Assembly: GCA_030390025.1 (NCBI GenBank)
Contig: CM059431.1
Span: forward strand, 99,264,001 to 99,328,000
DNA: 64,000 nt
Origin: Squalus acanthias
Taxonomy: Eukaryota
Direction: 5' to 3'
Shown: positions 35,430 to 37,780 of the stretch, one piece after another
How positions within the stretch are numbered: the first letter of the stretch is position 1
Layout of the letters: the number at the start of each line of letters is the position of its first letter
Position numbers and translations under genes: made by a program
The notes under the pieces: generated by a model
Seen by the model: the letters and a program-made list of their open reading frames with translations, nothing else
The model's database searches: none
What the model was told of the DNA's origin: nothing

Positions 35430-37780
35430 TTACACGGTGCTTTCATCGTGCACGCGCACGTAACGTTCTCGCCACTCTCCCGTGTTTTCGTTCTTGGTGA
35501 GGCGTTTGCCTCTCTTACAATGCACGACCAATAAGTATACCACAATAAACACTTGGCATACAACTAAAATGTGGAAGGCTATCCTAATCCAGGAAGGCAC
35601 TTCAATGTTGGTGAACAGATTCCACCATGGTGGAATTACTATGTCCAGAATTTCTGTCCCTATCTCGACAGTCTTTTGTTCTAGGGTGTAAAAATGTTTT
35701 TGCGATACCGCGACGGCTTTTAAAAGCTTGGTGAGGTGTTCCGGGAGAGGGGGAATGAGGTATCCGAAATGCGCGACGAATCGCTGCAGGTCGGTGAAGT
35801 TCTCTTTTACGGTAAGATGAACCGTGGATGGTTCAGGGATTGGGACAATTCGCTGTTGTGCTACTTGAACTTCCGCCCTGGGTTTGAAACAGAAACTGCT
35901 GTCACTCACCGGACACCGGCTACGGTTTCCATGCTGGTAGTGTTGCGCTGCAGTGGTAACACAATATGTTCCACCCCCGATGTATGCTACCTGCGGAGGC
36001 ACATGATCTTGTGCCATTGCCTCCATGGTGCAATTCATGGGCTTGGCACCAGCCGTTCTGAACCCGCACTGTGGTGTTAAAAAGGCATTCAAGTGCTGGG
36101 GACACAGTATTATGTGTGCTCCCCGGCCACGACAACCAGAGAGATCTGTACCTGTCATCGTTTGCTCCCAGCGGATGACGTAAGGTGGAACCGCTGCATA
36201 GCGAATGTGGGCTCCCCCCTGAATGACACCAATGTTCTCCACCCGATACACCGGGGCGGGCTTTGTTGTGTCGCCCAAAACCGGCATACGTAATACTATA
36301 CCCATGATAGTATGGTTTGATCGTCCGCAGTCCACGGGGACTGGGTATGCTTCTGAAGCTAGCCTGAGCTGGCACGGGCTTAATGTGTTCTGAAAAGGGT
36401 GGAGCGCCTGCAGGTGTTTGTTACTTATCCAGGACGGGACCAAACCTTGTTTTAAATCCTCCAAATTACTGCGGCCCTCGCCCAGTAACCACGCCCCGTA
36501 AAGCACGCACACCTCATTCTGCGCAGCCTGATCGGACGCATTCCGATCTTCCCTAATCAGGGCATTTACCGTACGCGCGTGTTTCTCCAGCTCAGCTATT
36601 ATTTCTTTTAAATGGAGAGTCATGGCCTGGTCCTCGTGTAACCCAGACCCAACCACCTTATTTTCATCTGTGAGAATGCTTTTTAATTGCGTTTTTAAGC
36701 CATTAATCTGGGTCTGCAGCTCCACGCTGTCTAGCGCGTTGACCACAGATGTACCTGTGTTGAAAGCAGTGAACACGTCGTTCACAACACCCCTTCTTTG
36801 CCTCCCCACCTGATCCAAAACTTCATGTGGTGCGGTGTACAAACTTGTTTTATCAATTTCCGCGAAATCGAACTCATAAAATTGTCTGAACATCTTGGTC
36901 AACAGGACCTGATATAACTGTTCCGTCTTTTTGGGGCACCACTCTGGTAACCGCACCTCGGTGAGATTTAAAATCACCGAGGCCACCGCGTAATGTACCC
37001 CCTGAAATAGTATCTGGTCTGTGGGGACCAGTACCAAACCATTCCCGGGTCCCTTACTGGTTTTAGGGCACCCTTCTTCCTTAGCTAGAACCACCGGAAT
37101 CGTGGGCGGGGCTTTGCGTGGGCGCGTAATGAGTTCAGTGGCATTTACCGGGATCGGGGAGTATGGGGCTCCACACCCCCTGGTGCTCGCATCCCACCTC
37201 ATCCCCTGTCCGTTATCCTGCCATTGATTGATGAAAAATATGGAGATGCCTTTGGGGCAAACGTACTTTGACCCCCACATACATACATAAATTCCCTCAT
37301 CCGGTTCCCACCATTTGTCCCAACAGACTCTCACTTGTCCGTTTGTCCCCGTAATTGTCCGATGGGTATTATTACCCAGTCGCTCCCACTCGACCGAAGA
37401 GTTCCTCATGTTTTTGCTCAGCTTTCGTAGCCACCACCATCGGCTCAATGGGACATTCCCATTACAAGTCAAACAAATCCGTTTGCCGACGGTGACGCTG
37501 ATTCTGGGTGCGATGATCCTTACTTTGGGCACAGTAAAGAAGTCTCTTGGTAGGCAAAACCCGATGTGCTGGAATACTCAGTTGAGTTCGTTCCCAGCCA
37601 TCCTGGCCACCTTCCCTTGTGGAAATAGGTGGTGGTCTCCTCAGCCTCTCGTCTTCCGGTCCCATCCACCGCGATGGGGGCCGTGTCCCCGGAGCATCCA
37701 AACACCACGACATCCTTGGTGTGGCCTCGATAGGCCAATCCACATCCGATTGCCGCGAGCAATACTAGAATTCGTTCCAT
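35430..37780 (-). CDS. env: Env: signal peptide + Ig-like domain + paramyxo/pneumovirus-F-like class I fusion protein; one frameshift near 37575 (~783 aa when repaired)
   Basis: MERILVLLAAIGCGLA from ATG 37780; 700-aa ORF 35430-37532; RQRR furin site at 36792-36803 followed by fusion peptide and heptad repeat; Cys-rich F1-like region; TM WIRIAFHILVVCQVFIVVYLLVV; splice acceptor TTCTATCTGATCACAG at 37794. Confidence 0.85.

Follow-up and report, generated by a model that had tools for sequence, protein, structure and literature searches.

A young endogenous retrovirus of Squalus acanthias carries a candidate F-type envelope glycoprotein with an immunoglobulin-like head

Can a retroviral envelope protein join an immunoglobulin-like head to a fusion core of the paramyxovirus F type? 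The question is raised by an env gene in the dogfish shark Squalus acanthias, within a stretch of 64,000 nucleotides (GenBank assembly GCA_030390025.1, contig CM059431.1, positions 99,264,001 to 99,328,000 of the forward strand) that we call the window and to which all coordinates refer. The gene occupies 35430..37780 on the minus strand from ATG to stop codon and contains one frame break. A first reading of the letters alone, here the original prediction, had proposed that its product places a captured immunoglobulin (Ig) domain, as the attachment module, on an F-type fusogen. F-like envelope (Env) proteins are a recent finding in retroviruses, published for lokiretroviruses in 2020 on the basis of sequence and for foamy virus in 2024 on the basis of structure, and they bear on the origins of retroviral envelopes. 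The region under study belongs to an endogenous retrovirus (ERV) of a cartilaginous fish, very young and present in many copies, and is the env gene of a copy that is itself dead. With moderate confidence, we favour the explanation that this env specifies a class I fusion glycoprotein of the F type with a head resembling the immunoglobulin superfamily (IgSF).

All parts that the original prediction had listed for the protein are present on the minus strand: signal peptide, Ig pattern, F2-like segment, RQRR, heptads, Cys-rich ectodomain and transmembrane anchor. Translation from the ATG at 37780 gives a signal-peptide-like start, MERILVLLAAIGCGLAY (37730..37780). In the window copy, the signal peptide and the first ~85 residues lie in one frame and the remaining Env in another. 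The two open frames overlap at 37520..37577, which places the frame break in this interval and explains why the 715-aa open frame starts within the N-terminal region. Compared with an open copy of 783 codons, the window env is 99.4% identical with one gap, with two residue differences between the proteins downstream of the frame break. In open sister copies the intact protein is 783 aa long, and it would be composed of a signal peptide, an Ig-bearing N-terminal region of ~220 aa, an F2-like segment of ~93 aa, the RQRR motif and a putative fusion subunit of 453 aa. A further 52 codons upstream of the env start MERIL are open in other copies; they carry no clear coding signal, and the stretch has no likeness to the skate relative P0008.

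The Ig-like domain, V/I-set-like in character, spans 37248..37526 and is marked by RICLTC with the B-strand Cys (37464-37481), RWWWLRK with the C-strand Trp (37422-37442) and DEGIYVC (37281-37301). The F2-like segment (36804..37070) begins with CPKTSKGPGNGLVLVP (37023-37070), includes the helix-prone stretch KKTEQLYQVLLTKMFRQFYEF (36870-36932) and is kept family-wide in our alignment A1 with two invariant Cys. RQRR, a furin-type cleavage motif, follows at 36792..36803, and adjoining it is the putative fusion peptide GVVNDVFTAFNTGTSVVNA (36735..36791), whose G/S/N/D columns are conserved in A1. Beyond this lies a helical region that may correspond to heptad repeat A (HRA; 36513..36734), with its best heptad stretch at 36513-36641 in a crude heptad scan. 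The middle of the fusion subunit (35748..36512) is Cys-rich and beta-prone, has 8-9 family-conserved Cys and would be the equivalent of F domains I and II. It is followed by a membrane-proximal helix region, the candidate heptad repeat B (HRB; 35637..35747), and by the transmembrane anchor (35523..35591) at the hydropathy maximum, after which a tail of ~30 aa extends to 35433 and the stop codon occupies 35430-35432.

The cleavage site had been placed about 450 residues before the C terminus, and the count from RQRR is 453. The proposal that Env differs from the surface and transmembrane (SU/TM) subunits of orthoretroviruses also agrees with the sequence. The list of Env cysteines contains no adjacent pair, and the protein therefore lacks CX6CC; a gamma-type TM would show this motif within a subunit of about 180-200 aa. 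Two gamma-type env genes of unrelated ERVs in the same genome (L043 and L044; G000:C15 and C13) have CX6CC together with an immunosuppressive-domain-like stretch, and so the contrast is real within one genome.

The Ig-like domain was evaluated with two profiles. One, A5, was built from eight N-terminal domains drawn from across the family, a set biased by the choice of segments for their Ig-like look; the other, A6, combines four close relatives only. Against the PDB, A5 matched JAML (E=6e-7), pIgR (3e-4), JAM-A (9e-4) and CD8a (5e-3), as well as VEGFR1 and antibody V domains, and all 60 listed matches are IgSF chains. A6 matched CRTAM at E=0.019 in an alignment that spans the B-strand Cys, the Trp and DEGvYkC, and four of its five matches at E<=1 belong to the IgSF. 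In Pfam, Ig_3 was matched by 3 of 45 members (best E=0.0027) and V-set by one relative (E=0.045), in each case below the curated cut-off, and for the window's own family the Ig_3 values are E=0.21-0.3. Taken by itself, the evidence from the close family is thus marginal and counts against the favoured explanation. UniRef names the Chiloscyllium member "Ig-like domain-containing protein". The domain has extra cysteines and a Trp-rich C strand. No second Ig-like domain emerged from residues 18-85; aligned to the whole protein by hhalign, the Ig profile matched residues 86-180 alone. Through these profile matches the claim of an Ig-like domain in Env is borne out, and a real IgSF-like domain at the N terminus is supported at the level of sequence.

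For the fusion core, the constancy of its layout across the family is the first line of evidence. In eight full-length members the F2-like part measures 79-97 aa, and its two Cys are conserved in 9 of 9 and 8 of 8 alignment rows. A basic motif occupies the cleavage column in six of the eight, and 434-499 aa follow this column in seven complete-looking members. Of the 10-11 Cys conserved in the whole core, 8-9 are in the fusion subunit. The minimal member, P0034, totals 584 aa, made up of a signal peptide, ~97 aa, the cleavage column and 465 aa, which are the proportions of paramyxovirus F0; an eel member (P0102), likewise devoid of a head, has 644 aa. The order of parts is that of an F protein, with a short N-terminal subunit, a basic site, a fusion peptide, the putative HRA, a Cys-rich beta region, the putative HRB and a transmembrane anchor. 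In the ESM-Atlas, the named neighbours of residues 238-729 are headed by Baculo_F clusters (0.92; 11 of 30) and Fusion_gly PF00523 clusters (0.91; 9 of 30). Furthermore, on inspection by eye, five collinear motifs recur in the family and in the published consensus Env proteins of lokiretroviruses (PMC7947760): G-P-x-x-G-[IVL]-V close to where the F2-like part begins, G-S-L-F-x-x-G-x-S-x-x-N within the fusion peptide, G-x-[IV]-P downstream of HRA, and V-L-x-x-P...N-[IV]-G and C...L-C-P...C-G-[LF] in the Cys-rich region.

Several observations weigh against an F-like core. The resemblance of these motifs to lokiretrovirus Env was assessed by eye and not by computation. Scores of the ESM-Atlas can serve as leads only; by its own account, 4-10 of every 100 shuffled proteins attain 0.9, and no rate is given for parts of proteins. 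PF00523 had no match at E<=10 in the 45 members searched with Pfam, nor any in the whole genome, the latter being a weak negative in that the control also matched nowhere. Searches of the PDB with profiles A1, A3 and A4 returned only noise from coiled coils, transmembrane segments and spike HR2. One Heterodontus fragment, P0038, matched Baculo_F (PF12259) at E=0.0011 with 18.1 bits against a cut-off of 24.1; we rejected this match as evidence, since the same C-terminal part of the model gives 22-23 bits on gamma-type env.

These blanks give room to an alternative in which the fusion subunit would have a class I fold other than that of F and would have converged on F in size and layout, its language-model neighbours reflecting generic class I features. 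Such a fold would account for the silence of the Pfam and PDB searches for F and for the unspecific nature of the weak Baculo_F matches, and hemagglutinin clusters are indeed also found among the ESM-Atlas neighbours, at 0.86. It fits poorly with the 20 of 30 ESM-Atlas matches that fall in the Baculo_F or Fusion_gly sets, with the layout of the minimal member and with the five motifs seen by eye in lokiretrovirus Env; we regard it as unlikely. The paramyxovirus-F-like core of the original prediction has indirect support from its layout, its ESM-Atlas neighbours and the motifs seen by eye in lokiretrovirus Env, and finds no sequence counterpart in PF00523 or the PDB. An F-like reading of the core is plausible, and most likely the core is an F-type ("class Ib") fusogen, of the kind that comprises paramyxovirus and pneumovirus F as well as the Env proteins of lokiretroviruses and foamy viruses. 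Among these, lokiretrovirus Env is probably the closest to it.

How are heads distributed over this core? We searched 1.84 billion representatives exhaustively by phmmer, using the 715-aa frame as query, and recovered 48 proteins; over the head these were all env fragments, and none was a cellular Ig protein. The closest matches of the window Env come from skate and sawshark. Relatives occur in the sharks Mustelus, Chiloscyllium, Heterodontus, Pristiophorus and Scyliorhinus, the skate Rhinoraja, the frogs Pelodytes, Mantella and Xenopus, and in Latimeria and Anguilla, with the A1 profile retrieving from the protein collection only the close shark and skate relatives. A scan of viral contigs with A4 gave 14 pattern matches, of which none was confirmed. 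In the window's family the part before the core comprises ~220 aa with the Ig-like domain, and in Chiloscyllium, Pelodytes, Mantella and P0032 it comprises ~130-170 aa, also with an Ig-like domain. Mustelus and Pristiophorus have a Cys-rich, non-Ig domain at this place; the Mustelus-type head was considered as Ig-like and rejected at an hhalign probability of 0.2%. In P0034, Latimeria P0046 and eel P0102 the core is preceded by a signal peptide alone.

A tree of the core resolves two clades (support 99/98), both of which include members with Ig-like heads, from sharks, skate and frogs. With Ig-like heads in both deep clades and a Cys-rich head or none in other members, the head is old in the family and exchangeable. 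The suggestion that the Ig domain was "captured" does not fare well: the phmmer search yielded no cellular donor, and the presence of such heads in both clades leaves a recent capture unsupported. Some env fragments lie inside host gene models of Pristiophorus and Heterodontus (P0004, P0005, P0011 and P0038, in models for a Niban 1-like protein, a ZFP2-like protein, a cadherin-domain protein and fbxo15 isoform X3), pointing either to chimeric prediction or to the exonisation of ERV pieces. Env relatives at 56-79% identity were also seen on short JGI metagenome and Logan contigs (P0069-P0071), and are probably fish DNA in environmental samples.

The element that carries the window env extends over 33202-42691 on the minus strand. 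Its 5' long terminal repeat (LTR; 40909..42691, 1783 bp) and 3' LTR (33202..34984), delimited by the extent of one blastn match, are 99.3% identical over 1784 columns. According to the lists of open reading frames (ORFs), gag (39190..41056) is broken into two frames, 40598-41056 and 39190-40695, and encodes one CCHC zinc knuckle (Pfam zf-CCHC, E=0.0013), the sole match of gag in a PDB search. In frame with gag past a single stop codon is a middle ORF of 343 codons (38158..39189), a pol remnant that joins the first ~10 residues of Pol, a coiled-coil insert of ~85 aa and the acidic C-terminal tail of integrase; the gene order is gag, single stop, pol remnant and env. Among the copies examined elsewhere in the genome, at least one (L008 with L011, G000:C26) has all of its genes open, with gag of 621 aa, one stop codon, pol of 1438 aa and an env frame of 836 codons. 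Its Pol contains protease, reverse transcriptase (RT), a tether-like RNase H relic, RNase H, integrase and the acidic tail. Compared with this protein, the middle ORF lacks protease, RT, RNase H and integrase, and since it keeps just three pieces, pol has been deleted in the window copy. In the window copy, then, pol is gone and the frames of both gag and env are broken. The existence of a copy with gag, pol and env all open indicates that the ERV family was probably active very recently.

Which lineage of retroviruses does the element represent? Compared with RT structures in the PDB, the full-length Pol scores 246 bits with Ty3, 240 with XMRV/MLV and 218 with foamy protease-RT. The closest RT relatives, at 44-51% identity, are from frogs and Latimeria. 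In an RT tree rooted on Ty3/gypsy, which contains neither lokiretrovirus nor spuma anchors, the shark, coelacanth and frog group lies outside the gamma-like pol clade.

The element could instead be a foamy-like, spuma-related ERV with a foamy-type Env, of the same broad fold class and perhaps with a membrane-anchored leader peptide, and hence not kin to lokiretroviruses or paramyxoviruses. The best PDB match of its integrase is prototype foamy virus (PFV) integrase (E=1.7e-34), its pol and env relatives live in sharks, coelacanth and frogs, a host range similar to that reported for foamy-like ERVs, and in the frog member P0018 REKR comes after a hydrophobic stretch at the N terminus. The gag gene, by contrast, has a CCHC knuckle and is separated from pol by one in-frame stop; foamy viruses are not known to have either, and both features disfavour a foamy identity. 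No foamy-specific Pfam family (Env PF03408, Gag, protease) is among the listed matches for gag, pol and env, where for the relatives the list covers 25 of 52 families. The RT scores given above are nearly equal for Ty3, XMRV/MLV and foamy virus, and the 52 codons before MERIL, where a leader would be encoded, have no clear coding signal. Two published observations bear on the same point. ERVs of catshark and lamprey without a detectable Env domain have been named "ERV-Spuma" (PMC10699275), which favours a spuma-related origin; the extra domain of foamy Env follows the HRC helix and precedes the furin site (PMC11468914), and that of the window Env is N-terminal to the F2-like part. We give the foamy-like alternative a low probability.

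With regard to lokiretroviruses, the published screen marks presence in Xenopus, Rana catesbeiana, Latimeria and Anguilla, and leaves five chondrichthyan genomes and Pyxicephalus without a mark (PMC7947760). Because sharks and Pyxicephalus are unmarked there, the element may not be a lokiretrovirus, a further point against the explanation that we favour. The lineage is probably distinct from lokiretroviruses as defined in that screen. A bolder view, possible but held only tentatively, would be that sharks, skate, coelacanth, frogs and eel harbour an unrecognised major retroviral lineage, apart from lokiretroviruses and foamy viruses, with an F-type Env whose conserved core accepts exchangeable receptor-binding heads (IgSF, Cys-rich or none), which was active very recently in the shark and which includes a large pol-less subfamily that retains gag and env and spreads with help in trans.

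We searched the 3.7-Gb genome for env copies. All 40 scored places of a DNA search, which had 4586 first-look candidates, are 99% identical over the env gene, and the 62 scored places of a protein search show 97-98% Env identity. Among 30 DNA-ranked env loci, the window included, 24 have no indel, either fully open (16) or with one stop codon (8), and the remaining six have one indel. Upstream of env, the fetched loci contain the pol-less junction in 12 cases and the integrase C terminus in 12 (one locus has both), with neither in seven. Across 276 pairs among the 24 ungapped copies, the ratio of nonsynonymous to synonymous differences per site (pN/pS) is 0.21, and variable sites at the first, second and third codon positions number 61, 47 and 112. 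The env gene has been under purifying selection while the family spread, as one would expect if a functional envelope was required for spreading. The regional pN/pS values are 0.38 for the Ig-like part, 0.11 for the F2-like part and 0.21 for the fusion ectodomain. Seven protein-ranked copies gave 0.12, a figure that their sampling biases downward.

The pol-less form constitutes a large subfamily (window 38158-39189 and loci L045-L050), with gag, one stop, a frame of ~368 aa (coiled-coil insert plus integrase tail) and env. The coiled-coil insert has at least 150 scored genome places at 83-100% identity, mostly open frames of ~368 aa, and on contig C3295 some of the pol-less copies are arranged at a regular spacing of 7.6-8.1 kb. 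Four runs of a kind that could only be guessed gave Logan contigs in which the summed word depth of env exceeds that of gag and the middle frame by several-fold to tens-of-fold, with a step near window position 37960; contig depth of this sort is unable to rank genes.

How might such an envelope work? As an F-type glycoprotein with an IgSF-like head, the precursor would enter the endoplasmic reticulum by means of its signal peptide, form trimers and undergo furin cleavage at RQRR. Through the F2-like segment the Ig-like head would stay attached, perhaps by a disulfide between one of the two conserved Cys of that segment and a Cys of the fusion subunit. The head would take the attachment role that paramyxoviruses assign to a separate protein; receptor binding would then free the fusion peptide, and HRB would pack on the HRA coiled coil, drawing the membranes together. 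In the ORF lists of the window copy and of the full copy, no second glycoprotein gene or further Env-encoded domain is seen, which makes the head the best candidate for attachment.

A real Ig-like head need not bind a receptor, and might rather shield the core or engage host immune receptors while attachment resides elsewhere. The head-less proteins P0034 and P0102 still look complete, and the higher pN/pS of the head relative to the F2-like part could be seen in this light, although it also fits a receptor-binding part. Against such a division stand the lack of any other domain or glycoprotein gene in the element for attachment, and heads that vary by lineage on a conserved core, as expected of a receptor-binding module; we consider it quite improbable. 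Finally, an ordinary orthoretroviral gamma-type SU/TM with an Ig pattern by chance could appeal to the weak close-family Ig evidence, but is close to refuted by the anatomy of the protein (453 residues past the cleavage site and no CX6CC), by its great difference from the gamma-type env of L043 and L044 and by the family-wide A5 matches to IgSF chains, and is extremely unlikely.

Other features of the window lie outside the element. A Tigger/pogo-like DNA transposon occupies 43164-45103 on the minus strand in two adjoining frames, with DDE_1 (E=1.7e-42), a Tc5 helix-turn-helix and a CENP-B N-terminal domain. Long tandem arrays are found at 1-1075, 1373-1895, 3768-4930, 7122-7811, 45345-46008 and 55868-56790. 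Their kinds include a G-rich 24-mer at the start of the window, AG-rich repeats, a 42/81-bp array in which the 42-bp unit occurs about 16 times, and an array with 28 copies of a 33-bp unit.

In comparison with known fusogens, the minimal family member resembles paramyxovirus and pneumovirus F (PF00523) in size and in the order of its parts. The two differ in that there is no sequence match and that the putative fusion peptide of the window Env is less hydrophobic; paramyxovirus and pneumovirus F are not known to have an N-terminal head and operate with a separate attachment protein. With the V-set domains of JAML, JAM-A, CRTAM, pIgR and CD8a, the head has in common the signature of an Ig fold, whereas no close cellular relative or donor was found in our searches, and the extra cysteines and Trp-rich C strand set the window domain apart.

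Errantivirus and baculovirus F (PF12259) offer a precedent for an F-type fusogen on an LTR retroelement (bioRxiv 10.1101/2023.10.26.564294) and supply the top ESM-Atlas neighbours of the core, the Baculo_F clusters at 0.92. The Pfam Baculo_F matches of the family are, however, below cut-off and unspecific, and that study reports no vertebrate ERV homologous to the invertebrate elements.

Lokiretrovirus Env has the same succession of parts, from a signal peptide and a short N-terminal subunit, through a basic site, a fusion peptide and a coiled coil, to a long C-terminal subunit and a transmembrane anchor, and its hosts overlap with those of the present family in Xenopus, Latimeria and Anguilla (PMC7947760). 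It differs in that the printed proteins pass directly from the signal peptide to the F2-like part, with no Ig-like or other head, and the word "immunoglobulin" does not occur in the main text of that paper. Lokiretrovirus Env is reported to match PF00523 at E=2.2e-7 (Wang & Han 2020, PMC7947760), unlike the window env family, and the head-less eel member P0102 clearly differs from the Loki-Aro Env as printed in that source.

Foamy-virus Env gp130 was found to be F-like by cryo-electron microscopy, and that work depicts the "class Ib" fusogens as modular proteins that take up receptor-binding modules at various sites (Fernandez et al. 2024, PMC11468914). Foamy Env is similar to the window Env in its F-like fusion machinery, furin cleavage, long C-terminal subunit and possession of its own receptor-binding module. 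Its receptor-binding domain, inserted before the furin site, is not described as Ig-like in that work, whereas the extra domain of the window Env, which precedes the F2-like part, has IgSF hallmarks. In the literature that we searched, we found neither an IgSF head on a retroviral F-type Env nor exchangeable heads on one core.

Set beside these systems, the family would be a third group of vertebrate retroviral F-type envelopes, and would extend such envelopes to cartilaginous fish, which carry no mark as hosts in the original lokiretrovirus screen (PMC7947760). With copies that are young, numerous and often open, and an env that has evolved under purifying selection, the family offers a protein whose expression, binding and structure can be studied without reconstruction. 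In presenting the same core bare, with a Cys-rich head or with an IgSF head, the family would show directly how a fusogen that has no partner attachment protein, unlike that of the paramyxoviruses, gains and swaps its receptor-binding modules.

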